Source: Candidatus Gottesmanbacteria bacterium
GTDB lineage: Bacteria; Patescibacteriota; Microgenomatia; 2-02-FULL-39-11
NCBI GenBank assembly: GCA_016186795.1
Contig: JACPKY010000002.1
Coordinates: 861,892 to 925,891, forward strand
Reading direction: 5' to 3'
DNA: 64,000 bases
The position numbers were made by a program, and so were the translations under genes. The notes beneath the pieces were generated by a model. The model saw only the letters and a list, made by a program, of their open reading frames with translations, had not been told where the DNA came from and made no database searches. Below, piece by piece: positions 11,498 through 59,677 of this stretch (positions are counted from its first letter, which is position 1; each line of letters starts with the position of its first letter).

Positions 11498-11500
11498 ATA

Positions 11501-12497: not shown

Positions 12498-12611
12498 ATG
12501 ATCACCTCCTTTCAAAGAAGATAAATCAAGACAATCGTTACAAACCCGGATCCCTTTCATAACGCGATAATAGATCAATTAAGAATGTAATTCTGTCGTG
12601 AAGGTGACAAA

Positions 12612-30217: not shown

Positions 30218-30694
30218 ATGAGAAAAGTACTCCTATTTGTTTTTTTACTTTCTTTTTTCCTCTCTCCACCTCCAATTTTTTCGGCAGTCACCCCAACAAC
30301 ATCGGCAATTAGCCCGCAGCCATCGTGTGATCTCTGCGGTTGGTGCAATCAAGCAGTAAACCCCAAACCTTCTAATTGGGATGCATGCCAGGCATGCATC
30401 GCACAACCCCGCGGATATTATACGGTTTTTGGCTGTTTCTCAACCGATCCGACAGGTGCTCCATTTGTCCAGGCAATTTTAACGCTTGTAGTGGGAGTTG
30501 CAGGAGGAATTGCTTTCTTGGCATTCTTAGCTGGCGCTGCAACGGTACTTACATCAACCGGAAACCCAGAGAAACTATCTTCGGGAAAAGAAACAATTAT
30601 TTCCTCTCTTATCGGGCTTCTTCTTATACTCTTTTCTATATTTTTACTTCGGGTCGTCGGAGTTGACGTATTACAAATTCCTGGATTTGGGTAA
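30218..30694 (+). CDS. TrbC/VirB2-like (T4SS-pilin-type) small protein with Cys-rich pre-domain
   Basis: 158 aa; signal peptide, CDLCGWC...ACQAC...GCFSTD module, then two hydrophobic helices separated by LTSTGNPEKLSSGKE loop. Confidence 0.55.
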   Translation: MRKVLLFVFLLSFFLSPPPIFSAVTPTTSAISPQPSCDLCGWCNQAVNPKPSNWDACQACIAQPRGYYTVFGCFSTDPTGAPFVQAILTLVVGVAGGIAFLAFLAGAATVLTSTGNPEKLSSGKETIISSLIGLLLILFSIFLLRVVGVDVLQIPGFG

Positions 30695-31287: not shown

Positions 31288-31325
31288 GTAGACATATTAC
31301 AAATTCCTGGATTTGGGTAGAAATA
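31288..31325. repeat. 38-bp direct repeat, right copy (remnant pilin C-terminal codons VDILQIPGFG-stop)
   Basis: gtagacatattacaaattcctggatttgggtagaaata. Confidence 0.7.
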
Positions 31326-31330
31326 TTATT

Positions 31331-32896
31331 ATGAATGAGTTTAGGCTAAAATATCAGATAGTTTCTCACGCAGTGAATCTGTCATACCTCGTATGTGGAA
31401 GTCGCATTTTAATTCGCGCATATAAATCCTTTCTAGTCTTGTTGACCTCAGTCTTATTGTTTATTGTTTCCTCTTTTTCCCTCTCCCCTGTTTATGCAGC
31501 AGCAAATTGTGGAGGTTTTACTTTCAATGTAACACCTGCCGAATCTAAAATAGGAGATCATACTATTTATTCTAATACCACTAACATAGAAATTGGTTTT
31601 GGTCTCAATCATCCTCCTGATGCCCCTGATCCTGATCCTGCTAACAACGGATTTGTTGTAGCTGCTGATGGAGGCGGCCAAAACGATTACGTTTCCACAC
31701 CTCAGCTTATTACCGATACGCAACGTAGTGTGGGACATTGGGATATATACGTAAAGATTGACAATAACGATAAGTATTCTGCTCAATTTCAGACCCGTTC
31801 ACACGCTCTAAACCTTTATCGTGTTTCTGATTTGGTTCCATTTGATACTTCAAAGCGGCCTCCGCCGGATGTGCTTGCAGGCGCAATCCCTGTTTGCACA
31901 TATACTTATCAAGTCATCCCACTTCCAACACCTACTCTGGCATATGTTCCATGCAATTTAAATTTTCGTATGCAAGACTCTCGAGGAAACATTTTGGATA
32001 AACCGACACTAGATGCTGTTTATTGGGTAACGGGAACTATCTCAAATATGCCCGATAGTCCAATTACTTACGATTCCTCAGGTAATGCTTGGAGTAGACT
32101 CTATTTTGGAGACCTCACTGTAGGTAATCGATCTACAGAAGAATATACTCCTGCAGACAAACAGACGATTTTCAAGTATATTGGTACATTTCCTCAACCA
32201 GGTTCTTATAGAGTTACATACGACATCAAATCCCAGACAGTCCAATGTATCCCAACGGACGAGTATGGTGTCGGAGGAGGGGTAACCTGTCCCAGAGACA
32301 AAACTGGAAAAGTACCAACGGATATTAACGGGCATTGCGAGGCTACCATAAATGTTGATGAATCCGGAGGATCTATCGACATTCCAAAAGTTCCGCCGCA
32401 ATGCATACGACAGGGTGGTCCTGATACTGACCCAGAATGTACATATCCTTACTGTAATGACAAATGTTCTTCTTGTCCCTGGTGTACAAATGTTGCACCA
32501 GGCATAAAAATTCCTAATTTAAAACCTCTTTGTGACCAATTACCAAGATCACCAGTAGACTACCAATCTGCCTGCAACACTTGTGTAAACAATACAGATG
32601 AAACAAAAAAAGGGATCTGGACCGGAATAGGGTGTATTTCCACAAATATGAATACATTTCTTGAAGAGTATGTTTTTCGTTTCGGTCCGGGAATTGCAGG
32701 CGGAATTGCCTTTCTCTATTTCCTTTATGGCTGTTTCCTCATCCTGACCTCGGCAGGAGACCCGGAAAAAATTGCCCAAGGAAAAGAAATAATCGTCTCT
32801 GCCCTCTCAGGACTTCTCCTTGTCATCTTTTCTGTCTTTCTCCTTCGTACGATCGGTGTTGATATTCTCGGTCTTCCTGAATTTACTAAACCGTAA
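31331..32896 (+). CDS. Large (about 520 aa) secreted Cys-rich protein ending in a TrbC/VirB2-like pilin module (putative pilus tip/adhesin-like paralog)
   Basis: ORF track start 31313 is TTG; ATG at 31331 (MNEFRL); signal/TM, about 400-aa domain with more than 20 Cys incl. CPWC...ACNTC...GCISTN, then GIAGGIAFLYF...LTSAGDPEKIAQGKE...two-helix pilin module nearly identical in pattern to 30218 gene. Confidence 0.55.
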   Translation: MNEFRLKYQIVSHAVNLSYLVCGSRILIRAYKSFLVLLTSVLLFIVSSFSLSPVYAAANCGGFTFNVTPAESKIGDHTIYSNTTNIEIGFGLNHPPDAPDPDPANNGFVVAADGGGQNDYVSTPQLITDTQRSVGHWDIYVKIDNNDKYSAQFQTRSHALNLYRVSDLVPFDTSKRPPPDVLAGAIPVCTYTYQVIPLPTPTLAYVPCNLNFRMQDSRGNILDKPTLDAVYWVTGTISNMPDSPITYDSSGNAWSRLYFGDLTVGNRSTEEYTPADKQTIFKYIGTFPQPGSYRVTYDIKSQTVQCIPTDEYGVGGGVTCPRDKTGKVPTDINGHCEATINVDESGGSIDIPKVPPQCIRQGGPDTDPECTYPYCNDKCSSCPWCTNVAPGIKIPNLKPLCDQLPRSPVDYQSACNTCVNNTDETKKGIWTGIGCISTNMNTFLEEYVFRFGPGIAGGIAFLYFLYGCFLILTSAGDPEKIAQGKEIIVSALSGLLLVIFSVFLLRTIGVDILGLPEFTKP

Positions 32897-32934: not shown

Positions 32935-33261
32935 ATGGAACTTGCACAAATATTAAATATCCCGGGCGGAAAGGTTCAGGGCCCACTGCCTACTATTGAT
33001 GCTACGGGGAACACCCGTTTTACTGACCTTGCCTCTTTTGTCACCAACCTTCTCCCTTACATCTTTCCAATATCCGGAGTATTCTTACTTTTTTATCTTA
33101 TCTGGGGAGGTTTTAGCTACCTCACGTCAATGGGAGACCCGAAGAAAGCCGCAGCAGGACAAGCAAAAATCACTAACGCTATTTTGGGATTCCTCCTTAT
33201 TTTTGTCGCATTTCTCATTGTCCAAATTGTGGATTACCTGTTTGGACTAAACCTCTACTAA
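32935..33261 (+). CDS. TrbC/VirB2-like (T4SS-pilin-type) small protein
   Basis: 108 aa; two TM helices separated by LTSMGDPKKAAAGQAK loop. Confidence 0.5.
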   Translation: MELAQILNIPGGKVQGPLPTIDATGNTRFTDLASFVTNLLPYIFPISGVFLLFYLIWGGFSYLTSMGDPKKAAAGQAKITNAILGFLLIFVAFLIVQIVDYLFGLNLY

Positions 33262-42725: not shown

Positions 42726-43469
42726 TTAAAGAAACGGTACACGAAAGATTCGCAGCATATAAAATACTGTCGATAATCCAACAATGAGAGGAACAACAAG
42801 AAGCGTAATGAGTCCGATTTTTAACAGATCCAAGCGGAGAGCAAATCTGAGAGTCAAATAATACAAAATTATTTTCCAAAAGAAAAGGGAGAGGGTGAGA
42901 GTGAGAAAAATAACACTAAAAAGTTTCCCTAAAAACGCTTCGGTTCTTGGGGGTGGAAGAAAAATATAAAGAAGCGAGGTAAGAAAAAACCAGATCGTTG
43001 TAGGAAGAAGGCTATATGTCCAAAGAATTGTTAACGTTTTTACTGATCCTTTCCCTCCTAAGAGTTTTCCAAGTGTTATAAAAAAAACGATCATGGTAGT
43101 AAATCCAAAAATAAACGCCGCAAAAAGGACGTTGAAATGAACTGAAAGCAAGAATGGGTACGACTTCCCGATACGAATAAAACTAGCAAAGATAAAATAG
43201 GCAATAACAAGAAGGAATACGAAAAGAAAATGACGGTGATCAGTTTTTTCAACAGAAAGCCTCCGATAGGTAACATACGGGTTATGGAATGTTCCAACAG
43301 CATTTGTTACAAAAAGGAGAGAAAGTTTCACGAGGGTGGTTACACGTATCATGGAATTTTCCCTTAGAACCCAAACTGTAGAAGAGATGCAATTTTCACG
43401 ACCGTTGAACCAAGGAGGAAATATAAAAATACACTCAAGAGAAAAGAGAAGGTTACAGTACTTCTCCAC
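42726..43469 (-). CDS. Hypothetical membrane protein (5-6 TM)
   Basis: 247 aa hydrophobic ORF following HMGR (3-nt gap). Confidence 0.45.
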   Translation of the reverse strand: MEKYCNLLFSLECIFIFPPWFNGRENCISSTVWVLRENSMIRVTTLVKLSLLFVTNAVGTFHNPYVTYRRLSVEKTDHRHFLFVFLLVIAYFIFASFIRIGKSYPFLLSVHFNVLFAAFIFGFTTMIVFFITLGKLLGGKGSVKTLTILWTYSLLPTTIWFFLTSLLYIFLPPPRTEAFLGKLFSVIFLTLTLSLFFWKIILYYLTLRFALRLDLLKIGLITLLVVPLIVGLSTVFYMLRIFRVPFL

Positions 43470-43593
43470 GGGGCAAATTTCAAATACGGAACTATCCGTT
43501 TGTACGCAAACGTCAACGGCCCTAGTGTCTGAGGGGGAACAACTGTCATCTCCTGCATCTTGGCAACTAAAAGCTCATACACTCTATCGTTTT

Positions 43594-44217
43594 TCATACA
43601 GAATATGCAAGAACGAATGCTCTCCGTGCCCGGAAAAGCAAACTTTCCGCACTTTTAAATGAAATAGCTAACTTTTTAGCAATTTCTTCAACAGAGTAGC
43701 CGTAAATATACTTCAACCGGAGTATCTTACTCTGGTTTGGTGCAAGCTTTCCGAAGGTTTTTCGAATTTTCTCCCGAAGCAACACTTCATCAAGAGTACT
43801 TTCGGGTCCAAGAAGCGTTGAGAGAATCGGTTCGATCTCGACAAACTTGGAAAATACTACCTGTTTGATCTTTTTTTTCCTGTAATAATCAATGATTTTA
43901 TGGACTGCAATACTACATATAAATGTATAGAGAGAACTCCGAAACGAAAAATCACGAAGCGCTTCTAGCGTTGCCAGAAAAACATCCTGAAGAATTTCCT
44001 CAGCGTCATGCTCATTTCCAACTTTTGCTCGTATAAAGGAAAAAAGACGTGGCTGATATATATGGTAAAATTTCCGAAGAGAAGGCTCATCTCCTGAAAG
44101 GATGTGTGTTACGATCTGTTTTTCGTCCATATTTATACCTATCTTAGTCGAAAAATCCAGATCTTTCATGTAATTTAGAACTCGTTTCAAAACCTCATTT
44201 CTACTGCAAACGCCCAT
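43594..44217 (-). CDS. RNA polymerase sigma-70 family factor (ECF-like, regions 2 and 4)
   Basis: 207 aa; region 2 ILQDVFLATLEAL...YRKKK and region 4 HTH LRLKYIYGYSVEEIAKKLAISFKSAESLLFRARRA; start may be internal (MKDLDF or MDEKQ). Confidence 0.7.
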   Translation of the reverse strand: MGVCSRNEVLKRVLNYMKDLDFSTKIGINMDEKQIVTHILSGDEPSLRKFYHIYQPRLFSFIRAKVGNEHDAEEILQDVFLATLEALRDFSFRSSLYTFICSIAVHKIIDYYRKKKIKQVVFSKFVEIEPILSTLLGPESTLDEVLLREKIRKTFGKLAPNQSKILRLKYIYGYSVEEIAKKLAISFKSAESLLFRARRAFVLAYSV

Positions 44218-44367
44218 ATTCAGCTACACACGGTTCAAAGCTCCTAGAAGTATCACTTCGTGTATACTCCGTCGTCACTTTTCACCGTGTTCGCATGAAT
44301 ATGAACATTTTCGCGACGAAAGCAGGTTTTGAAATGAGTTCTAGTATTGTACCCCTCCTTCCCTCGT

Positions 44368-44397
44368 TTGACAAATACTCAAAAACTCCCCTACACT
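44368..44397 (+). promoter_or_regulatory. Candidate sigma-70-type promoter (TTGACA-18 nt-TACACT) for pilin-like gene array; near-leaderless
   Basis: TTGACA at 44368..44373, TACACT at 44392..44397, ATG of first pilin-like gene at 44407. Confidence 0.4.
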
Positions 44398-44406
44398 ACA
44401 AGTAGT

Positions 44407-44730
44407 ATGTTTGCAAAACCAGTGTATGCGGTGAATGTCTGCGATGTTTGGACCTTTTGTAATAATAAGAATTTTGCTTCGCTTGGAAGCATTGTCTCGT
44501 TCTTCCTTCCCAAACTTATCCTGGCTGGGGCTGTCATCTTTTTTATCCTGATTATCGTTGCCGGAGTTGGAGTTATTTCCGGAGCAGGTGGTGATGATGC
44601 CAACGCCAAAGAACAATCCAAGATGTTTTTGACATACGCTGTCATTGGACTTCTTCTTATTTTTGGGGCATACTGGATACTGCAGATTCTCAATTTTATC
44701 TTAGGTGGATCGCTTGGCGGATTATTATAG
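44407..44730 (+). CDS. TrbC/VirB2-like (T4SS-pilin-type) small protein, array member 1
   Basis: ORF 44347..44730; preferred start MFAKPV at 44407; two TM helices around ISGAGGDDANAKEQSK loop. Confidence 0.5.
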   Translation: MFAKPVYAVNVCDVWTFCNNKNFASLGSIVSFFLPKLILAGAVIFFILIIVAGVGVISGAGGDDANAKEQSKMFLTYAVIGLLLIFGAYWILQILNFILGGSLGGLL

Positions 44731-44735
44731 TACCA

Positions 44736-45164
44736 ATGAAAAACTTCAACTTTTTGTTAACTATGGCTTTCCTTTTGGCTTTTGGTGTTACTATCCTTTT
44801 ACCAGTTCAAGAAGTCTTTGCACAAACGAATCCTATTGGCGTCATTATTGCACCAACTGGAGGACTGCTTGCAACACCTGCAATTGATGCGTCAGGAAAG
44901 CTTACCGGGGTTATTGCTCTTTTAAATTCCATCCTGAGACTTATATTTATCACTGCAGGGCTCTGGGGATTTATTAATCTCCTTATTTCGGGATTTCAAT
45001 TTATGACTGCAGGAGGCGACCCAAAAGCAATTTCGAAAGCTTGGGAAAAAATTTGGCAATCATTCTTGGGGCTTCTGATTATTGTCACGTCATTTTTACT
45101 GGCAGCAATTATCGGTATCCTCTTATTTAGAGATCCTGTTGCCATTCTTCAGCCTTCACTATGA
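44736..45164 (+). CDS. TrbC/VirB2-like pilin-type small protein, array member 2
   Basis: 142 aa; signal peptide; FQFMTAGGDPKAISKAWEK loop between two TM helices. Confidence 0.55.
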   Translation: MKNFNFLLTMAFLLAFGVTILLPVQEVFAQTNPIGVIIAPTGGLLATPAIDASGKLTGVIALLNSILRLIFITAGLWGFINLLISGFQFMTAGGDPKAISKAWEKIWQSFLGLLIIVTSFLLAAIIGILLFRDPVAILQPSL

Positions 45165-45616
45165 TGAAACAATTGTTCATTATCCTAATTACTGGTATTT
45201 TTTTCTTTTCAACACCTGTGCTTTCCGTCGATTCTTCAACGGGATTAGGATGCAGCGGTACAGGGAACCCTTTTGGGCCGCTTGCGAGCTTCCTTTGTGA
45301 ATTTAGTCCTGGTGCTAGTGAAGAAAACACAGCAGCTGTGGGAAATAAATTAAATTTCACCTTAAGTAGAATCATAGGCTTTTTAACAATTGTTGCAGCA
45401 CTGTGGTTTATCATCCAAATTATCACCGGCGGCTACCAATGGATTTCATCAGGAGGAGATAAACATGGAGTGGAAACGGCACGCGATAAAATGACGTGGG
45501 CATTTATTGGCCTTCTTGTTGTCGTTTTGGGATGGGTCATTGCTGGAGTTGTAGGAAGAATGCTCGGACTTGATATACTAAATCCGGGAAGTCTCCTGCC
45601 AACACTTGGGCTGTAA
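45161..45616 (+). CDS. TrbC/VirB2-like pilin-type small protein, array member 3
   Basis: 151 aa; signal peptide; YQWISSGGDKHGVETARDK loop between TM helices; ATGA overlap with member 2. Confidence 0.55.
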   Translation: MMKQLFIILITGIFFFSTPVLSVDSSTGLGCSGTGNPFGPLASFLCEFSPGASEENTAAVGNKLNFTLSRIIGFLTIVAALWFIIQIITGGYQWISSGGDKHGVETARDKMTWAFIGLLVVVLGWVIAGVVGRMLGLDILNPGSLLPTLGL

Positions 45617-45622
45617 AAAACT

Positions 45623-45994
45623 ATGAATCACCCGATACTTCTTGCACAAATATCGCCAATAACAAATCCGGTTATAACCAACATTGCGCAACGAACTCCG
45701 GATGAGGCGCCTGTTGTCTTTGCGAAATTTTTTGCAGCTTTGGTTGGCCTTCTCCTTACCGGGGCAACGCTTTTTGCGTTGATACAACTTTTTATCGGAG
45801 CTCTCCAATGGATAGCATCCAGTGGAGATAAAACAGCACTAGAAAATGCCCGTGAACGGATTATCCAAGCAATTGTCGGTCTTGTCATTACTTTTGCCGT
45901 ATGGTCAATTTATCTTATTATCCTTCAATTTTTGGGGATATCACCGATTGGAACAGGAGGATCATTTAATATCGTCATTCCCTCTCTTTTATAA
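45623..45994 (+). CDS. TrbC/VirB2-like pilin-type small protein, array member 4
   Basis: 123 aa; LQWIASSGDKTALENARER loop between TM helices. Confidence 0.55.
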   Translation: MNHPILLAQISPITNPVITNIAQRTPDEAPVVFAKFFAALVGLLLTGATLFALIQLFIGALQWIASSGDKTALENARERIIQAIVGLVITFAVWSIYLIILQFLGISPIGTGGSFNIVIPSLL

Positions 45995-46000
45995 AGATAT

Positions 46001-46462
46001 TTGCTGTTTCCCGAATTCATGGATACTCTTGACAAGATGAAAAGTACATTCCATACTAGGAGTATGAAGAGACTTGTATCTTTTGGCGGCGGTGTAGCTA
46101 CGGTTCTTCTTGCCTCATCGTACACATTTGCAGCCGAGACAAAAATAGTCGTCTCGCAACCTCCAAATCTGAAGATTACTAATTTCGGCAAACTCATTGG
46201 AGCTGCGATTGGGGTTGCTCTCGTCCTTGCAACCCTTGCTGCATTCTTCTTCCTTCTCTGGGGTGGTATCCAATGGATCACCTCAGGAGGAGACAAAGCG
46301 GGGGTTGAATCGGCACAACATAGAATCCAGGCAGCACTTCTTGGTCTTCTTATCGTCTTTTCTAACATCTTCCAGTTTACGATACCCAGTGCTGCAACGA
46401 TTACTAATCCTGCTCCCTTTCTTCCTCCTGGTAACCCTGTTGACAACTATCCTAACGAGTAG
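46001..46462 (+). CDS. TrbC/VirB2-like pilin-type small protein, array member 5
   Basis: 153 aa (start may be MKRLVSF signal at about 46064); IQWITSGGDKAGVESAQHR loop. Confidence 0.55.
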   Translation: MLFPEFMDTLDKMKSTFHTRSMKRLVSFGGGVATVLLASSYTFAAETKIVVSQPPNLKITNFGKLIGAAIGVALVLATLAAFFFLLWGGIQWITSGGDKAGVESAQHRIQAALLGLLIVFSNIFQFTIPSAATITNPAPFLPPGNPVDNYPNE

Positions 46463-46548
46463 AAACAGGAATCTCGACGACTAGTGGAATAGAGGGTAAA
46501 AACTCTACCCTTGACAAGTGAAAAAGAACATACCATACTATCTATATT

Positions 46549-46899
46549 ATGAAAAAGTTATTTGCTACTTTAACCGGTTTCACCTCAGTTTTACTCGCAT
46601 CTTCTCCCGCATTTGCCCAAGATACAACAATTACTATTTCAAGACCCGCAAATTTAAACATTACTGAATTTGGCAAGCTCATCGGGGCAATTATCGGCGC
46701 TGCCCTTGTCCTTGCAACCCTTGCTGCATTCTTCTTCCTTCTCTGGGGTGGTATCCAATGGATCACCTCAGGAGGAGACAAAGCGGGGGTTGAATCGGCA
46801 CAACATAGAATCCAGGCAGCACTTCTTGGTCTTCTTATCGTCTTTTCTATTCCTTTCTATGGAAAATTGGCCAGGCACGAATATCCCCTGTATTCTTAA
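46549..46899 (+). CDS. TrbC/VirB2-like pilin-type small protein, array member 6 (carries 150-bp tract identical to member 5; divergent C-tail)
   Basis: 116 aa; identical LVLATLAAFFFLLWGGIQWITSGGDKAGVESAQHRIQAALLGLLIVFS segment; overlaps next gene start by 41 nt. Confidence 0.45.
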   Translation: MKKLFATLTGFTSVLLASSPAFAQDTTITISRPANLNITEFGKLIGAIIGAALVLATLAAFFFLLWGGIQWITSGGDKAGVESAQHRIQAALLGLLIVFSIPFYGKLARHEYPLYS

Positions 46900-47212
46900 G
46901 ATAGACGTAGGAGGAGGGAAAACCGTCGATGTCCCCACCTTTAAATGCTTAGAAGCAATATTTTCAAGAATTCTCCTCGTTGCCATGTCCCTTGCTCTTC
47001 TTGCTCTTTTTGTCATGCTCGTTATTGGAGGATTTAAATTCCTCACTTCGGGTGGCGACCCAAAAGCAACGGCATCTGCCCAGCAAACAATGACGTTTTC
47101 CTTTGCCGGTATTATTCTTATGGCCGTTGCCTACGTCATCTTTCTAATCATCAAAGCATTTACAGGGATTGATGTCCTTAATTTCACCGTACCAACAGTC
47201 ATCGGCCCCTAA
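46859..47212 (+). CDS. TrbC/VirB2-like pilin-type small protein, array member 7
   Basis: From ORF 46670..47212, start MENWPG at 46859; FKFLTSGGDPKATASAQQT loop between TM helices. Confidence 0.5.
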   Translation: MENWPGTNIPCILKIDVGGGKTVDVPTFKCLEAIFSRILLVAMSLALLALFVMLVIGGFKFLTSGGDPKATASAQQTMTFSFAGIILMAVAYVIFLIIKAFTGIDVLNFTVPTVIGP

Positions 47213-47258
47213 TCCAAAAGCTTGACTTTTCCTTTCCTGAAACGAATAATAAAAGAGT

Positions 47259-48827
47259 ATGCACTTTTCTGCCCGGCTATTTTGTTTCGTTTTTGTTTTT
47301 CTTGCTCTTACCCTCTTTTCCTTTTCCAAAGCCGTACCAATTCATGCTGGACTTTTCGGTGCATTTGAAACGAGCGCAACGGATTGTGATAAAAAGATTG
47401 GAGATGATTGGCAAGAAACTCAGACAAACCCGAGTGGACCAACTAAACTTTATGATTGCAAATCGGGCTATAAGGAAGTAAGTAATGCTCTCCAAGCATT
47501 CAACTGGCAAATTCTGGGATCGACAGATCAACGCTTGTACGAGGCCGGAGAAAAGGGAGCAGTTTTTGCATTTGCTCAACTTAACGACTCAATGATTGAT
47601 ACTCCTCCAGCAAGCGGTCTTGCATACACCGGATATGTCCTTGCAAATATAGGGATTTTCCCAAAAGCCTACGCTCAGGGTATTGGGTTTGTCGGGCTTC
47701 TTCCCCTTTTCCCTCTCTGGGCGGCATTTCGAAACATTGCCTACTCTATTCTTATTATCGTCATGGTCGTTATTGGCTTTATGGTAATCTTTCGTATGAA
47801 AATTGACCCAAAAACGGTTATCTCAATTCAAGCTGCGATACCAAAAATAATTGTTGCACTCCTTCTTATCACCTTCTCCTATCCAATTGCAGGATTTCTT
47901 ATTGACCTTATGTATCTTGCCATGGCTATTGCCATCAACATTATTGCAACATCTCTTCCTGAAGCGACATTTCCTGACTATATGAGAGACTCAGCAGATC
48001 TCCAAAATCTCTTTATAACAGGCGGCTGGGGAGCGCTCTGGGGTTCTGTCTTTAACTTTAGACTCATTGGAGATTTCTTTAAACAAATATTTCTCGGGTC
48101 CTCACTCAATACCGGAGTTGGGATAACAACTGAGCTCCTTAGCGCAATCATTTCAGTGGGATTCGGCGGCGTAGCAGGTGCTGCAGCTATTCCATGGGCT
48201 ATCGGAGGACTTATCGCACCAGTTGCTATCCTTCTTCTTATCATTGGACTCGGACTCCTTTTTACCGTTATCCGCATCACCTTCTTACTTTTGAATGCCT
48301 ATATTCAAATTATTCTTGCGCTTATTTTTAGCCCTATTCTTCTTCTTCAGGAAGCAATTCCCGGACGTTCTGCATTTGGTCAATGGATACAGAATTTAAT
48401 TGCCAACCTTATTGTCTTTCCGGCAACTGTTCTTGTCATCTATGGAAGTTGGATTCTGACAACATTTGCATGGAAATCAAACCTGTGGTCTCCGCCTCTC
48501 ACCCCCGTCGGCGGTGGAGGAGACCTTGGCGGGTCTGGAAATCCAATTGCTGTACTTTTAGGGCTTGGAATGATTTTTATGACGCCAAATCTTATCGCAT
48601 CCATCAAAAAAGCTTTCCACCCAACATCTCCATTGCCTATTTCTGCCGGATCTGCCTTCTCGCCTTTGACCGGTGGAATTTCAACAGGGATGGGGGCAAT
48701 GAGCCAGTTCTACTATATGCAACAACTATGGGGAGCACATGGCCAACCAGGACCGTTACAGGCACTTGTTGGGAAAGTTGCTCCATTCTTACGAGGAGGT
48801 CGTGGGGACCATAACAACCCAAGTTAA
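47259..48827 (+). CDS. Polytopic membrane protein, possibly VirB6/TrbL-like (follows pilin array)
   Basis: 522 aa; signal peptide, about 170-aa extracytoplasmic domain, then 6 or more TM helices and Gly-rich C-tail; placement after VirB2-like genes. Confidence 0.35.
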   Translation: MHFSARLFCFVFVFLALTLFSFSKAVPIHAGLFGAFETSATDCDKKIGDDWQETQTNPSGPTKLYDCKSGYKEVSNALQAFNWQILGSTDQRLYEAGEKGAVFAFAQLNDSMIDTPPASGLAYTGYVLANIGIFPKAYAQGIGFVGLLPLFPLWAAFRNIAYSILIIVMVVIGFMVIFRMKIDPKTVISIQAAIPKIIVALLLITFSYPIAGFLIDLMYLAMAIAINIIATSLPEATFPDYMRDSADLQNLFITGGWGALWGSVFNFRLIGDFFKQIFLGSSLNTGVGITTELLSAIISVGFGGVAGAAAIPWAIGGLIAPVAILLLIIGLGLLFTVIRITFLLLNAYIQIILALIFSPILLLQEAIPGRSAFGQWIQNLIANLIVFPATVLVIYGSWILTTFAWKSNLWSPPLTPVGGGGDLGGSGNPIAVLLGLGMIFMTPNLIASIKKAFHPTSPLPISAGSAFSPLTGGISTGMGAMSQFYYMQQLWGAHGQPGPLQALVGKVAPFLRGGRGDHNNPS

Positions 48828-48850: not shown

Positions 48851-49807
48851 TTGACAGACTACTCCTATTTCCCTACTATTACCCCTATGACAGATATTGT
48901 TGTGGGGGTAGATAGCGGAGGGAGTAAAACCGTGGCAATTGCAGGAACTAAAGATGGAAAAATTCTTGGCCGGGGAACAGCAGGCGCAGCCAACCCGCTC
49001 TCGGTGGGAATTGAAAGAGCTCTTGAAAATATTGTCACGGCAATAAAAAACGCCACATCAGATATTTCCGCCCCAACAATTGTCAGTCTATACGTAGGAA
49101 CAGCGGGAGGAAAACCGAAAGCCCTCAAAGACATGCACAAAGCAATACGGCTCACCTCTCTTCTGAAAATCACAGGAACTATTACGGTTGATCATGACCT
49201 TCGTACAGCGCTTTACTCAGGACTTCCCAATGGTGATGGTATTGTTCTTATTGTTGGAACTGGATCTGCTGCCTTTGGAATTGACAGGAATAAGAATGAA
49301 GTGATTGTTAGCGGCTGGAACCACTGGTTGGGAGAAACGGGTGGGTACGAACTTGGGATAAAAGCAATTATTGCTGCAACAAGAAGCTATGATGGCCGAG
49401 GACCTAAAACTATCCTTGAAAAAGTCGTCGCGGAAAAATTTGCCCTGAAACAGTTTGAGGATATTTCATCACTTATCAAAGCGCCCTTTGTTGATAGCCC
49501 AAAAATTGCATCACTTGCGCCTTTTGTTGCGGATGCTGCAAGAAATGGTGACAAAATCGCCATGAAAATTATCGATGAGATGGTAGAAGAGATGAACTGC
49601 ACAATTTCCGCCGCCGCAAAAAGAGTAGGTATCAAAAAGAATCTCAAAGTGGTACTGGTAGGAGGAATGTTTCGGATGAAAATAAATATTGTGGAAAAAC
49701 TCAAGATGAAACTCTCAAAATGGGCAAAAAATGCCAAGCTTATCTTTCCCAAGGAGGAACCTGGAATAACCGCTTTCAAATTTGCCCTGAAAAATATTAG
49801 TGGGTAA
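48851..49807 (+). CDS. BadF/BadG/BcrA/BcrD-type ATPase (N-acetylglucosamine kinase-like, ASKHA superfamily)
   Basis: 318 aa; phosphate-1 motif DIVVGVDSGGSKT (likely true start MTDIVV at 48887), LIVGTGSAAFG phosphate-2-like motif. Confidence 0.65.
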   Translation: MTDYSYFPTITPMTDIVVGVDSGGSKTVAIAGTKDGKILGRGTAGAANPLSVGIERALENIVTAIKNATSDISAPTIVSLYVGTAGGKPKALKDMHKAIRLTSLLKITGTITVDHDLRTALYSGLPNGDGIVLIVGTGSAAFGIDRNKNEVIVSGWNHWLGETGGYELGIKAIIAATRSYDGRGPKTILEKVVAEKFALKQFEDISSLIKAPFVDSPKIASLAPFVADAARNGDKIAMKIIDEMVEEMNCTISAAAKRVGIKKNLKVVLVGGMFRMKINIVEKLKMKLSKWAKNAKLIFPKEEPGITAFKFALKNISG

Positions 49808-51197
49808 ATAAAAGTTTTGCTGAAGTTTTTCTACCATCCATCTCAACTGCATATTTCCCTTTGTTATTCAGCCATTCCTGCATATGAGTTGCCGCCTCGT
49901 TTAGAGAGACTCTCTTGTATGGATAAGTAATAAGCGCTTCAAGTCTTTTGGAAGATGTTTGTGCAAGCCCGTCACATAAAAGGAGTGCTGATATTTCCAT
50001 TTTATTTTTTCCTCCGTATGAATGATGTAATTTCTTTTCATTCCCTACCCCTTTGAATGGATCTTTCTGTCCTACTTGCCCTGCTGCCCAAACAATTACT
50101 CTACCACTCTTTTCCACAACGTCACCATAATCTCGAAGTGTTGGAACTTCAAATGTAGGAATAAGAATGTCAAATTTCTTCATCCTAGTAATTACTTTTC
50201 TCAAAAGCTCATGTCCGTTTTGATCGTCTCGTTTCCCCTCCTTCAGACAGATTATTTTTCCTGGGTTAAGCGCATGAATTGCTGTTAGTTTCTTGTCGGT
50301 TCTGCCAAGAATAACAATTGTAGCATTGGGGAAAGCAGTGGTGGAAGTCAAGGCAAGAAGCGCCGCATTTGGACCATCTCCAAGGATTGCAATTCGATCC
50401 ACTCTCTCTCTACTCATAAATACCGGATGAAATGCCTCAATACAGCAACTGAGTGGCTCCATCGCCACAAGAAGTGATTCTCGCTTTTTTGGGTCTTTAG
50501 CAATCCAGGTATTTAATGTTTTGGGGACAGGTGAGAGCATATGGTTGGGATATGGAAGACCAAAAGGAGCATGATAAGAAAATCCTGGTAATTCCATGTG
50601 TCCTGGTACTCTTTTGCGTGTATGACGTCCGGCAATATCTCGGTGGCACTCAAGTGCAAAGCCGTTTTTGGAAATTTGCCAATGGTTGTCACAGCGAAGC
50701 GAAGCGTCAATAACGACTCGATCTCCTTTTTTTATCTTCTGAAAATCAATCTCTAAAACGTCATACTTTAGTCCGGTAATACTTTTTTTATCTTTCGAAA
50801 AAACGGGAACAAAGGCAGCAATTTTTCGGGGTTTATCTGAAGAATTCGGAGTTACCGAAACAATAACTCCGCTCCCTTCATGGTTTGGTATCTGTAAAAT
50901 TTTCAGTAACGTTTTTTTATCTCCCCCTATACCATGCGTTTGCAAAAGAGCGAGATTTTCCTCCAATTTTTGTTTTTCCTCAAAGAGATCTTTGTGAAAT
51001 CTTCCCCCCCAATAATATCCATGAGGGCCACCATCACTTCCACAGGGAGCAGAGTACGTGATTTTAATATTGGCAAAGCCGGAATGCGGGATATTTGCCA
51101 TATTCAGAGACGACTTAACGTATTTAACCGCAAAACCATCCTGAGGAAGGATTCCTTTCGGAGAAACAGAAAGATGAGAAATTATTTGTTTTTCCAC
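49797..51197 (-). CDS. Atypically long zinc-dependent dehydrogenase-like protein (MDR superfamily), paralog B
   Basis: 466 aa; CGSDGG and NHEGSGVI catalytic-zinc region blocks, Rossmann IAILGDGPNAALLALTSTTAFPNATIVILG; large insertions relative to canonical about 340-aa MDRs. Confidence 0.55.
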   Translation of the reverse strand: MEKQIISHLSVSPKGILPQDGFAVKYVKSSLNMANIPHSGFANIKITYSAPCGSDGGPHGYYWGGRFHKDLFEEKQKLEENLALLQTHGIGGDKKTLLKILQIPNHEGSGVIVSVTPNSSDKPRKIAAFVPVFSKDKKSITGLKYDVLEIDFQKIKKGDRVVIDASLRCDNHWQISKNGFALECHRDIAGRHTRKRVPGHMELPGFSYHAPFGLPYPNHMLSPVPKTLNTWIAKDPKKRESLLVAMEPLSCCIEAFHPVFMSRERVDRIAILGDGPNAALLALTSTTAFPNATIVILGRTDKKLTAIHALNPGKIICLKEGKRDDQNGHELLRKVITRMKKFDILIPTFEVPTLRDYGDVVEKSGRVIVWAAGQVGQKDPFKGVGNEKKLHHSYGGKNKMEISALLLCDGLAQTSSKRLEALITYPYKRVSLNEAATHMQEWLNNKGKYAVEMDGRKTSAKLLFTH

Positions 51198-51217
51198 TAT
51201 TCGTTCTATTGAGATAC

Positions 51218-52795: not shown

Positions 52796-52867
52796 AAGCG
52801 ATTATTTTTCTTCAAATGATAGTTTCCAGTAGTTTTTCGGATTTACCAGGCAATCTATTTGAACCAT

Positions 52868-53641: not shown

Positions 53642-53812
53642 AATACCGATAAAAAACCACGGATGCTACCGTGGTGTATTTTGTAAAAATCTTCTCATGG
53701 AAGCTTACGTTTATGGATAAAAGCCATATAGATCAGCCTCATATTCATACTTTATCATACTATTAGGATAAAAATCAAGTCGGGGATAATTATAGGAAGC
53801 TTTTAAAGCAAC

Positions 53813-54364: not shown

Positions 54365-54370
54365 AATAAA

Positions 54371-55855: not shown

Positions 55856-58800
55856 TTAATGGTGACCCCCTCCCCCACCACCTTCTTCCTCTTCATCTTT
55901 TGCTGTCAATGCCTGATACATCATCAGAACCCATGCCATCATAATTCCAAGCGTTATCGCCTCATAAAGAGCATGGAATTTGGTTCCTCCTATCTCTTCC
56001 TCAAGCTGATGAACTGAGTAAGCTAGTTCCGCACCCCCAATATAATCCGCATGCTTCCAGGGAAGAAGATTTTCTGCTCCAAGTCGGTGTGCAAATTCAT
56101 ATAATTTATTTGCATCCCAAGCAGCCCCTGCTTGACGACTGCTTACTTTCTGGGCAATTGAGCTATCGACACCCAAAGCCACAAGTTTACCAAATATGCC
56201 AGTTTTACTCGCCCACCAAGCTTGTTTAAAAAACTTAGCTGTTGCCTCTGCATGGAGGGCAATTTTTTTCTCGGAAAACCATTTATCATCTTCCTCATAT
56301 GCTTCAGACATCTCATGGAAACTTTCAAAAATGGCTTTCATATCTCCACTCGTACTTAAATTTCTTGTTACATACTTCATCTCTGCTTTAAGTCCCTTTG
56401 CGTGTCCTTCAAAATCACCACCACGCCTTGCCCATTGTCTATACCCGAGATTAATAAGTTCCATTTTGTCCCATACGACGTCTTCGGTACTAAGAAGATA
56501 CGGGTTCTTTTTATGTAATAGTTCTTCTGTGAGTTGAAAATAGGGGGCAGAAGTGGGATCTCGTCTGGCAGCCTCATGAGCCCGCTCCAAGATGGCATTT
56601 ATATGCTTTTTCGGATGTCGATGATGTGCATCCCACACATTGTCCCAATTTAATATAAGGTTTTTTCCTTGACCATTCTCGCTATAATGAAGTCCTAATG
56701 CTTCCATCCATTCCCGTTCTGACCATGTACCTAAAATTGCCTTTTTTGATTTCCGAAAATATTCCCGTGCACGAGTTTGTCGAAGAATTGTCTCAGCCCG
56801 ATCCTCCACCCAATTCCCTTGGGCATCTTGCCGGACTGCCTTAATTTTGTCAAAGTCACTCTCATACCAAACGCCATTTACTTGTTCACGAACTTCACGA
56901 ATCGCTCTTGGACCCTTTTCATCGTACAACGAGGCATGGGCAACAATATCAATGTCTCCTTCTAACACTCCGATCTGCTCTCGAAGCCACCTTTTGTGCG
57001 TATTGGTAATGTTACCACCAACATCAAAAATATGCTCGAAATCAAGCCCTGGGAACATTTCCTCAATAATCTTATCTCGAAGTGATTTTTTCCGCAGTTT
57101 CCCGTGATACTGTTCCATAACGTATGTGTTCCTCGCCACAATATGCGGACTTCGAGTGGCCATCTGCACCCAGGTAAACGTATTATAGATATCATTTACT
57201 TCTTGAGTCAGTTCTTCAATGGCATGAACCATGGGTTTCCCGTGCTCTGTAAGTTCTTTCCACTCTCTACGTACATCTGCGGTATAAATTCCAAGAAGCG
57301 GCTCCTCGTTTTTCCCAGCTTTCCGCCACTCTCTTTCAAACCACTCCATATCAACTGCCTGACCATTTGGTAATAAATAATCTCCTTCCCGTACGTCTCC
57401 CATTCTCCGAAGCTTTATTTTCCCGGTTGAAATAAGTTCATATAAAAATCTCTCTTTGAAATGTCTCTCGACTAAAAATTCTTTCACGTCTTCAGTTGCC
57501 CATTTCTTGTTCATAAAAGATAGCCGTATCGAACCGCCAAGGTACTCTCTCTCACGATCAAGCATGCCTATTATCGCATCGTGCACTCCCCATGTACTCC
57601 ATGGACCAAATCTGCCGGAAAACATCCCGTAGGCATACTTTTGCATGAAAGACTCAGCCTTATCACCGAATTCTTCTTCAAAAGTACCATTCACTATCGC
57701 ATCAAATACTCTCTGCGGTTCATTAATATCAAACACTTTTCCTTTCTCGCCTTCTCCTGCACCAATAATAATATTCCAGTACGCTCTAAATTTATCATCG
57801 GCAACACGCCATTTCATAAATAAGTGAAGGGGGTTTATAAAGCGGGACATTCCTTCATAGGGAACGCTGGAAAATACTTTATCCTTATCACTCCAATCAG
57901 GCATATCCTGAGGTATCCATGCAGGAACTCGCTGGAGTGCAAATATCTCAAGAAGTCGGGCGCTTAATAGTCCAAACCCTTTTGCCTGCTGGAGAGCGGC
58001 GTTTAGTCGCCACTTCCCTTCTCCGTCAAACTGGGAACGGCGGACAGGATTTTCTCTATCCCAAATAACTCGTCTTCCATCTCTATCTTTCATCACTGTC
58101 CCATCGGGATTTCGCATTGCATCATGAATAACTCCTGCGTCAACCATCTGCATAAATCTGTCATAAACCATCTCATCCCAGAGCGAATCTCCGGCAAACC
58201 GACCGTCAGCCGTTGGCTCAACAAACTGGGGAGGAATTCTCCCGTTGAAGGTTTTTAATACGTCCCACAAGACTCTTTCGTATAAATTGATGAGCTGCTC
58301 AACAATTGGATCTTCCATCATATCCATGGTGAAAGAGTTGCGTGAGAATGTTGTTAGAACCTTCCAACTCTCTTCATTTCCTTCGGGGTGAAGAGCAATA
58401 ACAACCGCATCGTGTGCCGCAAAGATTCCATACATTCTATTCGTTAACCTGCTTGAGAGTTTGTATCCCCCTTCATACTCTTGAATCATCTCCATCAGTT
58501 CATTCATTGCTTCGGCTTCGTACAAACCCCAAGCGTCACGATGTTGTTCTGTGGCTTTGGCAAGAACACGCCTGAGAATTTTATAAAACGTTTGCTCAAA
58601 GATGACTGCTCGTTTTTTCCCTTCATCAACTTGACCGGTAACCGAATCAAGAAGTGACCGTAACTGGACCTCATCAATATCAAACATTGCAAGCGTTCGG
58701 GATTCCTGATACCGCTCACCTCTTTCCTGAGCAGCTCTTGCTTGCATTTTCCGTTTGTGCTTCAAGATATGCTGAGTGAACTGCCACGAGTTTTCCATTG

Positions 58801-59677
58801 TTAAACGATCTCTTTCTGGTAATGCCGCTGTATCTCTCATAACATCAAGTATTTTCCGATTAAATTCTTCAAGAGCTACTTCGTACTTTTTCTTGTAAAC
58901 GATATGCCCTAGCCTTGATAGATTTGTGTCTTCTTCAGCAGAATCAGACGTATCTGTAAACTCATTGGGGTTTGCAGCTATTCGTTCTTTGAGATACTGG
59001 TAGACTCGCTTTTCTCCAACTGATGCATTTGGATCAATTGATCCATACCGGCCGGTAAAATCAAGCGGAGTCACTGGCGTTCTTGGCCTTCCGATTTCTG
59101 CTCCTCCTCTTTCTGGTGGAACGTTTGCCTCATACGCAGTCCGTGCATTTGTCAAATCCGCATTGTAGTCGGCATTTCGGATGTCCGGTAAACTCAAATT
59201 ATGAATTTGCTGCAATCGAAACTCGATCCGCTGTCCAAGTTGTTCTAAACTTCGTAAATCCCTGTCGTTTTGAGGAAGCGGTGCAATCTCCTGCTGCAAG
59301 AAACTGACATCTCTTAACTTCTTAAGAAGAATATCGTATGTTGCCGCATCTTGAGCAAGGTGAGGAGTCACACTTCTAAGTTCAACGATGAGATTGACAA
59401 CACCCGGATTATTCGATAATGTCTGCGGGGTAAAGGCAAGACCTTGGAGAAGATGCCCAGCTGGAAGATTTCTGAGCATTTCCAAAACTTCTTGTGCCCG
59501 CGCTTCGCTATATTTCGGATAATGCTTCTTTGATTTGAGTCTTCCCTCAACCTCTGCACGCTGTAGAATTCTTTCTGCTGCTAGTCGTGCTTCCAAAACC
59601 GGATCACGAACTTCGGGAGTTCCCCCTCGTCCCAATGCTCCTTGAACAAGTCTCGTCAAGGTCTCTAAAAACGCCAT
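55856..59677 (-). CDS. Giant (1273 aa) hypothetical protein, soluble with single C-terminal TM and Glu/Gly/His tail
   Basis: Uninterrupted ORF; no signal peptide; C-terminal LYEAITLGIMMAWVLMMYQAL TM then KDEEEEGGGGGGHH; Trp/Arg/Glu-rich; no recognised catalytic motif. Confidence 0.6.
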   Translation of the reverse strand: MAFLETLTRLVQGALGRGGTPEVRDPVLEARLAAERILQRAEVEGRLKSKKHYPKYSEARAQEVLEMLRNLPAGHLLQGLAFTPQTLSNNPGVVNLIVELRSVTPHLAQDAATYDILLKKLRDVSFLQQEIAPLPQNDRDLRSLEQLGQRIEFRLQQIHNLSLPDIRNADYNADLTNARTAYEANVPPERGGAEIGRPRTPVTPLDFTGRYGSIDPNASVGEKRVYQYLKERIAANPNEFTDTSDSAEEDTNLSRLGHIVYKKKYEVALEEFNRKILDVMRDTAALPERDRLTMENSWQFTQHILKHKRKMQARAAQERGERYQESRTLAMFDIDEVQLRSLLDSVTGQVDEGKKRAVIFEQTFYKILRRVLAKATEQHRDAWGLYEAEAMNELMEMIQEYEGGYKLSSRLTNRMYGIFAAHDAVVIALHPEGNEESWKVLTTFSRNSFTMDMMEDPIVEQLINLYERVLWDVLKTFNGRIPPQFVEPTADGRFAGDSLWDEMVYDRFMQMVDAGVIHDAMRNPDGTVMKDRDGRRVIWDRENPVRRSQFDGEGKWRLNAALQQAKGFGLLSARLLEIFALQRVPAWIPQDMPDWSDKDKVFSSVPYEGMSRFINPLHLFMKWRVADDKFRAYWNIIIGAGEGEKGKVFDINEPQRVFDAIVNGTFEEEFGDKAESFMQKYAYGMFSGRFGPWSTWGVHDAIIGMLDREREYLGGSIRLSFMNKKWATEDVKEFLVERHFKERFLYELISTGKIKLRRMGDVREGDYLLPNGQAVDMEWFEREWRKAGKNEEPLLGIYTADVRREWKELTEHGKPMVHAIEELTQEVNDIYNTFTWVQMATRSPHIVARNTYVMEQYHGKLRKKSLRDKIIEEMFPGLDFEHIFDVGGNITNTHKRWLREQIGVLEGDIDIVAHASLYDEKGPRAIREVREQVNGVWYESDFDKIKAVRQDAQGNWVEDRAETILRQTRAREYFRKSKKAILGTWSEREWMEALGLHYSENGQGKNLILNWDNVWDAHHRHPKKHINAILERAHEAARRDPTSAPYFQLTEELLHKKNPYLLSTEDVVWDKMELINLGYRQWARRGGDFEGHAKGLKAEMKYVTRNLSTSGDMKAIFESFHEMSEAYEEDDKWFSEKKIALHAEATAKFFKQAWWASKTGIFGKLVALGVDSSIAQKVSSRQAGAAWDANKLYEFAHRLGAENLLPWKHADYIGGAELAYSVHQLEEEIGGTKFHALYEAITLGIMMAWVLMMYQALTAKDEEEEGGGGGGHH

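Follow-up and report, generated by a model that had tools for sequence, protein, structure and literature searches.

A tandem array of T4SS_pilin-family genes in Candidatus Gottesmanbacteria as a probable module of an origin-proximal type IV secretion system

The window analysed here, a 64,000-nucleotide stretch of the Candidatus Gottesmanbacteria contig JACPKY010000002.1 (positions 861,892 to 925,891; GenBank assembly GCA_016186795.1), contains seven co-oriented small open reading frames (ORFs) on the plus strand (pil1 to pil7, 44407-47212), followed by an ORF encoding a 522-aa polytopic membrane protein. Very probably, this locus is the pilin and platform module of a chromosomal, origin-proximal type IV secretion system (T4SS) of the type typical of the Patescibacteria (or CPR, for candidate phyla radiation). 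As part of the best explanation we can offer, the array would comprise six anciently diverged, positionally conserved VirB2-like subunits and one recent duplicate, and the operon would end with a highly divergent VirB6-type protein. The system occupies three loci spread over ~43 kb around the replication origin (oriC): the pilA-pilB-pilC genes, the array with the polytopic gene, and the PrgI/TrsD/VirB4 genes (Table 1).

A considerable part of bacterial diversity belongs to the Patescibacteria, which rely on host cells. In Candidatus Southlakia epibionticum, the one genetically tractable member of the group, transposon sequencing (Tn-seq) showed that epibiotic growth requires both the T4SS and its array of six pilins (PMC10633639, PMC12857230), hence the relevance of the present locus. 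Arrays of 2-11 VirB2 genes have been reported in Patescibacteria (441 arrays in 383 assemblies, with an enrichment in Microgenomatia and Saccharimonadia); pilin genes are found near virB4 in only 1135 of 1948 assemblies, and the T4SS often lies near dnaA (PMC12102498).

RESULTS

Family identity and architecture of the small proteins

The initial annotation, made from the nucleotide sequence without database searches, had described the seven ORFs as VirB2/TrbC-like pilin paralogs. All seven are present as consecutive ORFs of a two-helix design, and all match the Pfam family PF18895 (T4SS_pilin), which is the top Pfam match for six of them, TrbC scoring marginally higher for pil5. When the three further paralogs encoded elsewhere in the window (pilA, pilB and pilC; see below) are counted in, PF18895 matches all ten proteins, five of which (pil3, pil4, pilA, pilB and pilC) reach its gathering score of 26.6 bits; pil1, pil2, pil5, pil6 and pil7 stay below it (12.7-24.3 bits), yet align with the other paralogs. 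The NCBIfam pilin-like conjugal transfer family Mbov_0395 was also recovered, below threshold (E = 1.3e-6 for pil3). As judged from the alignment and from hydropathy, all ten paralogs are built of a helix 1, a (S/T)(G/S)GD(K/P) loop and a helix 2, both helices being long and hydrophobic, and the AlphaFold model of pil4 is a helical hairpin (helices 28-65 and 70-103, core pLDDT ~90). Taken together, these data support the assignment of the small proteins to the T4SS_pilin (VirB2-like) family.

The signal peptide that had been ascribed to every ORF is a feature of only some of them: by inspection of the sequences, a signal-peptide-like N-terminus is found only in pil2, pil3, pil5 and pil6 (hydropathy confirmed the N-terminal hydrophobic segments of pil2 and pil3), whereas pil1, pil4 and pil7 display a short hydrophilic N-terminal tail, which contains two cysteines in pil1. 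Similarly, the ORFs announced as 108-153 aa long do exist, but the probable starts of three of them (ATG at 44407 for pil1, 46064 for pil5 and 46859 for pil7) lie later than first listed, so that the proteins of the array range from 107 to 151 aa. The positions of the promoter-like sites described below point to 44407, 46064, 46549 and 47259 as probable starts, and pil7 is also called as a 117-aa gene starting at 46859 in independent assemblies. The tight packing of the genes was borne out: pil2 and pil3 overlap by a 4-nt ATGA and the other gaps within pil1-pil4 are of 5-6 nt. At the distal end of the array, the reading frame of pil6 continues into pil7.

Several observations make the link of the small proteins to VirB2/TrbC proper a weak one. 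None of them reaches the gathering threshold of PF04956 (VirB2/TrbC; 27.9 bits), the best scores being those of pil6 (22.5 bits, E = 1.3e-4), pil5 (14.6 bits) and pil1 (11.6 bits), so that, of the two Pfam families proposed for checking the annotation, PF18895 is recognized by five paralogs above threshold and PF04956 by none. Comparison of the paralog alignment with R388 TrwL/VirB2 by hhalign gave no signal (probability 0.1%), and a fold search with the hairpin model retrieved generic helical hairpins only. To our knowledge, a filament has never yet been seen for these proteins. Note that, in a search of PHROGs, neither the pilins nor the polytopic protein nor the 1273-aa protein encoded downstream (see below) showed any relation to phage.

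A T4SS motor module across the replication origin

About 60 window ORFs, i.e. nearly all those of at least 100 aa that do not lie inside a longer ORF, were scanned against Pfam. None of them was found to encode VirB4, VirD4, VirB11 or a relaxase, and no Walker A motif is present in the large unannotated window ORFs. A look-up of YidC retrieved two read-level contigs, L011 and L013, that match the right end of the window with 100% identity over 9.5 and 2.7 kb, respectively, and reach 10 kb past this end; the positions of the genes beyond the window are given hereafter in window-equivalent coordinates deduced from these contigs. Downstream from rnpA, dnaA, dnaN and an unannotated ORF, they encode a VirB4-type ATPase, a TrsD-like protein and a PrgI/VirB3-domain protein (Table 1). 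Some 20 kb separate this T4SS motor from the polytopic gene's end, with the replication origin (dnaA/dnaN) in between, the array itself being ~16 kb from dnaA and VirB4 ~3 kb past dnaA/dnaN. VirB4 and PrgI/VirB3 (TrsD being sub-threshold) occur in the same genome near dnaA/oriC, as is the case for Patescibacteria-type T4SSs.

The initial annotation had stressed that no ATPase is encoded near the array. This is literally true within 15 kb, but the array cannot be considered independent of a T4SS ATPase on that ground, since VirB4 lies ~20 kb away: the lack of an ATPase gene within a fixed window is not equivalent to independence from a T4SS. The suggestion to look for a VirB4-like ATPase elsewhere in the genome proved fruitful, as the gene is found just past the window end. 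By contrast, the prediction that the array is not a standard conjugation module is supported: a Pfam search of ~73 kb (the window ORFs and the 10-kb extension) disclosed neither a relaxase nor a coupling protein.

The relationship between the array and the motor emerges from related genomes. Three long contigs (L005, L007 and L009), found via homologues of the 522-aa protein, and 30 species-representative loci, found with an alignment of the family, were searched by means of hidden Markov models (HMMs) or phmmer; the targets were the proteins of the system (pilins, polytopic protein, VirB4, TrsD, PrgI) together with the sigma factor and further markers. About 16 Gottesmanbacteria-type loci share the layout of the window: the minus strand carries HMG-CoA reductase, Yip1 and an extracytoplasmic function (ECF) sigma factor, after which come 6-8 pilins, the polytopic gene and a convergent gene for a ~1250-aa protein, with dnaA ~9 kb further on when the contig reaches that far. 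In six distant relatives whose loci are fully covered (L039, L043, L044, L046, L047 and L048; 28-31% identity), the genes form a single cluster on one strand, in the order 6-8 pilins, one or two genes, the homologue of the 522-aa protein, a convergent hydrophilic protein of 620-940 aa, PrgI, TrsD and VirB4; the same order is found in L049, whose contig ends within TrsD. Overall, the 522-aa homologue directly follows the pilins in ~25 of the 30 loci as well as in the three long contigs, and lies 1-3 kb downstream in ~8 more.

This conserved association is strong guilt-by-association evidence that places the array and the polytopic protein in one machine with VirB4, and the contiguous clusters of the distant relatives suggest that an ancestral contiguous cluster has been split in Gottesmanbacteria. 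A complete T4SS immediately adjacent to the array, which the initial annotation regarded as incompatible with its own view, is close to what was found: the genes are contiguous in related lineages and ~20 kb apart here. What tempers the argument is that a functional link between loci 20 kb apart is deduced from synteny in other lineages. Incidentally, several ENA TPA records of metagenome-assembled genomes (MAGs) entitled 'uncultured Gammaproteobacteria bacterium' (L021, L024, L026, L029, L036-L038 and L043-L048) carry Gottesmanbacteria/Microgenomatia-type T4SS loci; these titles appear to be placeholders or mislabels.

A second pilin locus upstream of the array

An HMM built from the seven array ORFs, from which pilA, pilB and pilC were left out, recovered pilC (E = 1.8e-20), pilA (E = 1.8e-9) and the C-terminus of pilB (E = 8e-8), whose genes form a locus ~11 kb upstream of the array. 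All three exceed the PF18895 threshold, and pilC is the strongest Pfam match among the ten paralogs. The count of ten paralogs in 64 kb put forward in the initial annotation is thus correct; that it is striking is not supported, as arrays of 2-11 pilin genes have already been reported to be common in Microgenomatia (PMC12102498).

The contiguous arrays of distant lineages are headed by pilB-like genes (encoding a large ectodomain and a pilin hairpin) and pilC-like genes, which identifies the 30.2-33.3 kb locus of the window as a third fragment of the same system. With its large ectodomain, pilB is a candidate minor pilin bearing an adhesin. A gene encoding an NYN-domain (RNase-like) protein (30701-31222) is located between pilA and pilB. 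The window is also rich in extracytoplasmic thiol-redox genes (1580-2637 and 9839-12578), which encode a DsbA-like protein, VKOR, a DsbD_TM-DUF3179 fusion and two thioredoxin-like proteins. Several pilins contain cysteines in their N-terminal parts, where the formation of disulfides would be consistent with such a gene set.

The 522-aa polytopic protein, a VirB6 candidate

The 522-aa protein, which is identical to HYW55_05895 of Candidatus Gottesmanbacteria (class Microgenomatia), encoded on a contig of 1.118 Mb, has itself no match in Pfam or NCBIfam. When its structural model was submitted to Foldseek, the first five ranks were occupied by TrwI chains and the sixth by DotA, at ~13% sequence identity. 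Besides, two divergent members of the 522-aa family gave faint matches to the Pfam families TrbL (E = 0.072) and TraG_N (E = 0.17), both of which are VirB6-type families. Finally, in the distant relatives, the gene sits in T4SS clusters beside the pilin, PrgI/VirB3 and VirB4 genes (as far as TrsD in L049), and no other polytopic protein is encoded in the VirB4 module. In our reading, the 522-aa protein is a candidate for the VirB6-type platform of Microgenomatia T4SSs, even though membership in the VirB6 family is not demonstrable by sequence.

Sequence comparisons indeed speak against this assignment. A TrbL/VirB6 Pfam match is found in none of 62 family members, even at E-values up to 10; hhalign comparison of the 522-aa family with TrwI and with a 35-sequence TrwI-family profile, a shallow one since the TrwI homologues retrieved are all at least 50% identical, returned probabilities of 0.1-0.3%; and the 522-aa family profile gave chance matches only against PDB sequences. 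Likewise, starting from the distant member L039, no bridge to an annotated VirB6 was obtained, as none of its best 120 matches carries a Pfam domain. The resemblance to VirB6 noticed in the initial annotation is supported by gene position, suggested by the fold ranking and not borne out by sequence.

The 522-aa family is large: it comprises 3428 clusters at 50% identity with an E-value of 1e-3 or better, and the best 150 matches of an exhaustive search of the representatives are all close relatives. Among the matches listed, named members come only from Gottesmanbacteria, Shapirobacteria, Microgenomates and unclassified Patescibacteria/bacterium MAGs, and none has a Pfam domain, so that the family appears restricted to Microgenomatia-type CPR. 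VirB6 homologues have been noted to be scarce in Microgenomatia, extreme divergence being suggested as a cause (Quinonero-Coronel et al. 2025, PMC12102498), and the 522-aa family is an obvious candidate for the VirB6 that profile searches miss in this group.

Proposed function: filament or channel

In the mechanism that we propose, the pilins would enter the cytoplasmic membrane with the help of Sec or YidC, and the polytopic protein would form a membrane platform comparable to the VirB6 pentamer of R388. In the R388 model, VirB2 is recruited to the base of the VirB6/VirB5 stalk and polymerised with energy provided by VirB4. Here, the VirB4/TrsD/PrgI module would drive extraction and polymerisation of the pilins into a filament or conduit that crosses the envelope toward the host cell, with the paralogs acting as major and minor subunits, the pil5 type being the predicted major one, and the pilB-type fusions presenting adhesive ectodomains. 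Because no relaxase or coupling protein is encoded nearby, such a machine would probably serve host interaction or macromolecule exchange rather than conjugation, by analogy with what has been proposed for Saccharibacteria.

It is unlikely that the small proteins are instead integral membrane components of a short envelope-spanning T4SS channel in a monoderm, comparable to the small membrane proteins of the conjugation systems of Gram-positive bacteria and of Mycoplasma integrative and conjugative elements (ICEs), the 522-aa protein being an unrelated polytopic partner merely analogous to VirB6. In favor of this scheme are the lack of pili in Gram-positive T4SSs (PMC12102498), the best NCBIfam match being a 'pilin-like conjugal transfer protein' of a Mycoplasma ICE, the lack of sequence homology between the 522-aa family and VirB6, and the fact that no VirB5-like tip protein was identified; in addition, no pilus is known to have been observed in any Patescibacterium, the wording of PMC12857230 being limited to a 'potential to elaborate conjugative pili'. 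However, at least six distinct two-helix subunits together with large-ectodomain fusions such as pilB are hard to explain as a channel lining alone, and the top structural matches of the polytopic protein are VirB6 and DotA, i.e. stalk/protochannel proteins.

Evidence for fixed subunits rather than a variable repertoire

The initial annotation envisaged antigenic variation as one possibility and proposed to look for diversifying selection on the loop of the pilins. The evolutionary pattern of the array is quite different. The array paralogs are only 19-39% identical to one another, with the exception of pil5 and pil6 (78%), and the gene order pil1-2-3-4-5-7, as determined from the closest window match of each successive pilin, is collinear in ~16 species, where the orthologues are mostly 40-65% identical (range 33-65%). 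The pil1 orthologue comes first in these species (38-62% identity) and pil2 keeps the second position, while the pil7 orthologues (46-64% identity) are always the last pilin ahead of the polytopic gene; ~10 further loci differ or are truncated (last pilins only, or none). The only array position whose copy number varies between species is pil5 (1-3 copies), and the pil5 type seems to be the only one to have undergone recent duplication or gene conversion. As for the loop, column conservation was used as the measure, since synonymous sites would be saturated at an orthologue identity of only 40-64%. Over 167 pilin domains, conservation peaks at the GG preceding the loop, in the ITSGGD loop and at a GL of helix 2; the variable portion corresponds to the N-terminal extracytoplasmic segments.

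Positional orthology and a loop that is the most conserved part of the domain favor specialised subunits over antigenic variation. As far as sequences tell, the pilin set is old, ordered and under purifying selection, which fits specialised major and minor subunits and not diversifying selection on the loop. The notion of a stand-alone set of variable surface proteins, which was among those first proposed, is quite unlikely to hold; such a set would arise through duplication and diversification, with no part played by a T4SS, and would serve to vary antigens or host range. This notion draws on the absence of an ATPase gene within 15 kb on either side, on the recent pil5/pil6 duplicate with its identical 142-nt tract, suggestive of gene conversion, on the 1-3 copies at the pil5 position, and on N-terminal extracytoplasmic segments that differ in length and sequence; host-range versatility was also raised in a 2025 paper (PMC12102498). 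Against this, six orthologous positions are collinear in ~16 species and the orthologues are far closer than the paralogs, so that the set is old and fixed, the ITSGGD loop motif is the best-conserved segment, and VirB4, TrsD and PrgI are encoded 20 kb away here and next to the array in related lineages.

The array therefore provides evidence that multiple pilins can be ancient specialised subunits rather than a variable repertoire. A bolder proposal, which we put forward only tentatively, is that the 522-aa family is the long-missing VirB6 and that the six pilin orthologues and the pilB-like fusions build a heteromeric T4SS filament in which each subunit has a fixed role. The characterised VirB2 pili that we know of are all essentially homopolymers.

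The pil5/pil6 duplicate and a probable misassembly

The pil5 and pil6 genes share an identical tract of 142 nt (46223-46364 and 46708-46849), and their sequences identify them as a recent duplicate. In this assembly, both proteins are ~15 residues short in helix 2 relative to every other paralog and to independent assemblies of the same population, a point that counts against the proposed explanation. Independent assemblies suggest that this truncation is an artefact. Four single-run assemblies of the same study that cover the upstream side (L014, L015, L017 and L018) end 30 nt into the repeat, as expected for k=31 graphs, and four downstream contigs (L001-L004) start with 52 nt that are absent from the window. 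L016 spans the repeat with a single 127-aa gene that has a full helix 2, ending in LIVFSIWALFTVVGNFLGLPNIFQFTIPSAAN before the stop codon, and proceeds straight into pil7; an intact helix 2 would include …IWALFTVVGNFLGLPNIFQFTIPSAA…. In all, the stretch ahead of position 46849 is longer by 52-89 nt in five single-run assemblies, the additional nucleotides completing helix 2 and providing a stop codon, and exact-sequence look-ups found the exact pil5 and pil6 products of the window nowhere else on record. The most economical reading is that the truncation probably results from local misassembly of the MAG at the repeat, the alternative being real variants generated by unequal crossover.

That the locus is a decaying remnant, i.e. 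a split, partly pseudogenised and non-functional T4SS, is highly improbable: the cluster is indeed broken into three loci, helix 2 is shortened in pil5 and pil6 and a 7-kb insertion separates the polytopic gene from the 1273-aa gene that usually adjoins it, but the split layout is kept with intact ORFs in ~16 Gottesmanbacteria species (40-64% orthologue identity, implying purifying selection), independent assemblies of the same population do not show the truncations, and every unit retains a promoter-like site.

Promoters, sigma factor and genomic context

Promoter-like sites of the type TTGACA-N17/18-TAnAnT, exact or near-exact, end 6-9 nt before the ATG of pil1, pil5, pil6 and the 522-aa gene, in agreement with the sigma-70-like promoter initially spotted close upstream of the array, whose -10 box ends 9 nt before the pil1 ATG. 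Altogether, five genes display sigma-70-like -35/-10 pairs 6-9 nt before their ATG (44368-44407, 46029-46064, 46511-46549, 47222-47259 and 48851-48887); in the case of pil5, the interval from the -10 box to the ATG contains an AGGAG. Going by these spacings, this organism may commonly produce leaderless or near-leaderless transcripts.

The divergent gene beside the array was correctly identified as that of an ECF-type sigma factor, as shown by matches to Sigma70_r2, Sigma70_r4_2 and Sigma70_ECF. This sigma factor is a possible regulator of the array, an adjacency that is kept in Gottesmanbacteria loci only, and the 77-aa single-pass membrane protein encoded downstream from it, at the same spot in L005, L007, L009 and L014, is a possible anti-sigma factor. 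A 26-nt inverted repeat (44176-44201/44318-44343; 88% complementary, arms 116 nt apart), which extends from the 5' end of the sigma gene to just upstream of the pil1 promoter, was considered as a regulatory element and rejected, as it is not conserved in eight relatives.

Judging from the Pfam scan, the window is ordinary chromosome. The minus strand just upstream of the array carries a mevalonate operon, Yip1, the 77-aa membrane protein and the ECF sigma factor; the window also encodes SmpB, a form II/III RuBisCO and a NiFe hydrogenase, with Wzy, Jag and YidC at its right end. GC skew is negative over nearly the whole window, the origin being just past its right end; from the skew and the gene orientations, the plus-strand pilin operons and the VirB4 module across oriC would be transcribed head-on to replication, unlike most of their neighbours.

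Downstream of the polytopic gene, the 1273-aa hydrophilic protein has no match in Pfam, NCBIfam or PDB. A protein of this type is directly convergent on the polytopic gene in ~21 Gottesmanbacteria-type loci, and may be an uncharacterised T4SS component or substrate. The HMM of its family does not detect the large proteins found in the same slot in distant lineages; in these lineages, the slot is occupied by a sequence-unrelated hydrophilic protein of 620-940 aa. Here, the polytopic gene is separated from this neighbour by a block of ~7 kb (48851-55759) that the other Gottesmanbacteria lack at this site, and that encodes a BadF/BcrA-type ATPase, two unannotated paralogs (466 and 525 aa), a HAD hydrolase, an AAA_33 kinase and the form II/III RuBisCO.

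Table 1. Features of the window and of the region past its right end (the latter in kb, window-equivalent coordinates)
Feature	Position	Strand	Description
pilA	30218..30694	+	158-aa pilin, Cys-rich N-terminal ectodomain; PF18895 30.1 bits
pilB	31313..32896	+	527 aa, large Cys-rich ectodomain and C-terminal pilin hairpin; PF18895 27.2 bits (residues 460-512)
pilC	32935..33261	+	108-aa pilin; PF18895 40.1 bits; NCBIfam Mbov_0395 E = 1.7e-8
77-aa gene	43364..43597	-	single-pass membrane protein, downstream of sigma gene; ORF
ECF-type sigma factor gene	43594..44217	-	divergent from array; Sigma70_r2, Sigma70_r4_2, Sigma70_ECF
promoter-like site	44368..44397	+	TTGACA-N18-TACACT, ends 9 nt before pil1 ATG
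pil1	44407..44730	+	107-aa T4SS_pilin paralog, two hydrophobic helices, no signal peptide; PF18895 20 bits, below threshold
pil2	44736..45164	+	142-aa pilin paralog, signal-peptide-like N-terminus; PF18895 21.6 bits
pil3	45161..45616	+	151-aa pilin paralog, signal peptide; PF18895 30.2 bits, above gathering score
pil4	45623..45994	+	123-aa pilin paralog, no signal peptide; PF18895 27.8 bits
pil5	46064..46462	+	132-aa pilin paralog, signal peptide; own promoter-like site (46029-46057)
pil6	46549..46899	+	partial duplicate of pil5 (promoter and first ~100 codons); 142-nt identical tract
pil7	46859..47212	+	117-aa pilin paralog, no signal peptide; PF18895 24.3 bits
promoter-like site	47222..47250	+	TTGACT-N17-AATAAT, ends 8 nt before 522-aa gene ATG
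522-aa gene	47259..48827	+	polytopic membrane protein, candidate VirB6-type assembly platform of Microgenomatia T4SS
1273-aa gene	55856..59677	-	hydrophilic protein, C-terminal transmembrane helix, Gly/His tail; conserved neighbour of polytopic gene
rnpA	past window right end, before dnaA		from L011/L013
dnaA	64.9-66.2 kb		starts ~0.9 kb past window end
dnaN	66.4-67.5 kb		from L011/L013
485-aa ORF	67.5-68.9 kb		unannotated; from L011/L013
VirB4-type ATPase gene	69.0-71.1 kb		688 aa; NCBIfam conju_CD1110 405 bits (cutoff 325); Pfam P-loop_TraG, AAA_10, CagE_TrbE_VirB
TrsD-like ORF	71.1-71.7 kb		TrsD 28.8 bits, sub-threshold; also matches VirB4 N-terminal region
PrgI/VirB3-domain gene	71.8-73.1 kb		41.8 bits (cutoff 27)

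COMPARISON WITH KNOWN SYSTEMS

The locus is a clear member of the known Patescibacteria T4SS and pilin-array kind, and not a new kind of system. What it adds is a divergent family as candidate VirB6, orthology by position for six pilins, a three-way split around oriC with an ECF sigma partner, and an assembly problem at pil5/pil6.

Like the Patescibacteria T4SSs described so far (PMC12102498), including that of Southlakia (SEML1_0006-0019; Wang et al. 2023, PMC10633639), the system is chromosomal and origin-proximal, comprises VirB4, TrsD and PrgI(VirB3), has no relaxase or coupling protein nearby and belongs to a monoderm, host-dependent lineage. The tandem divergent PF18895 pilins are another common trait, with six genes in Southlakia and six conserved positions here. 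It departs from these systems in that it is split into three loci over ~43 kb around oriC, in that the pilin and platform operon is paired with a divergent ECF sigma gene, and in that the VirB6, TrbL and PrgH sequence profiles fail to detect its candidate VirB6 component.

The small proteins share with the Gram-negative VirB2/TrbC pilins (PF04956; R388 TrwL, Agrobacterium VirB2) a small size, two hydrophobic helices separated by a short loop, a signal peptide in some cases, and genes located together with those of VirB6 and VirB4 homologues. Unlike them, they score below the PF04956 threshold and give no hhalign signal to TrwL, several lack a signal peptide, and, instead of one major pilin, there are 6-10 distinct paralogs, some with large N-terminal ectodomains, in a monoderm envelope. 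Similarly, the 522-aa protein resembles VirB6/TrbL (PF04610; TrwI, PDB 7O3V) and Legionella DotA (PDB 9NGY) in being polytopic, in having an N-terminal extracytoplasmic helical domain and in being encoded between pilins and VirB3/VirB4. It differs from TrwI in length (522 versus 342 aa), is ~13% identical to it with no profile-level similarity, and belongs to a large unannotated family of its own.

Finally, the presence of several tandem paralogs in a T4SS locus recalls the tandem VirB2/Trw pilins of Bartonella and Anaplasma. In these bacteria, however, the amplifications are recent, lineage-specific and tied to host-cell adhesion or immune evasion, whereas the array of Candidatus Gottesmanbacteria is ancient and positionally orthologous, recent duplication being confined to the pil5 position.

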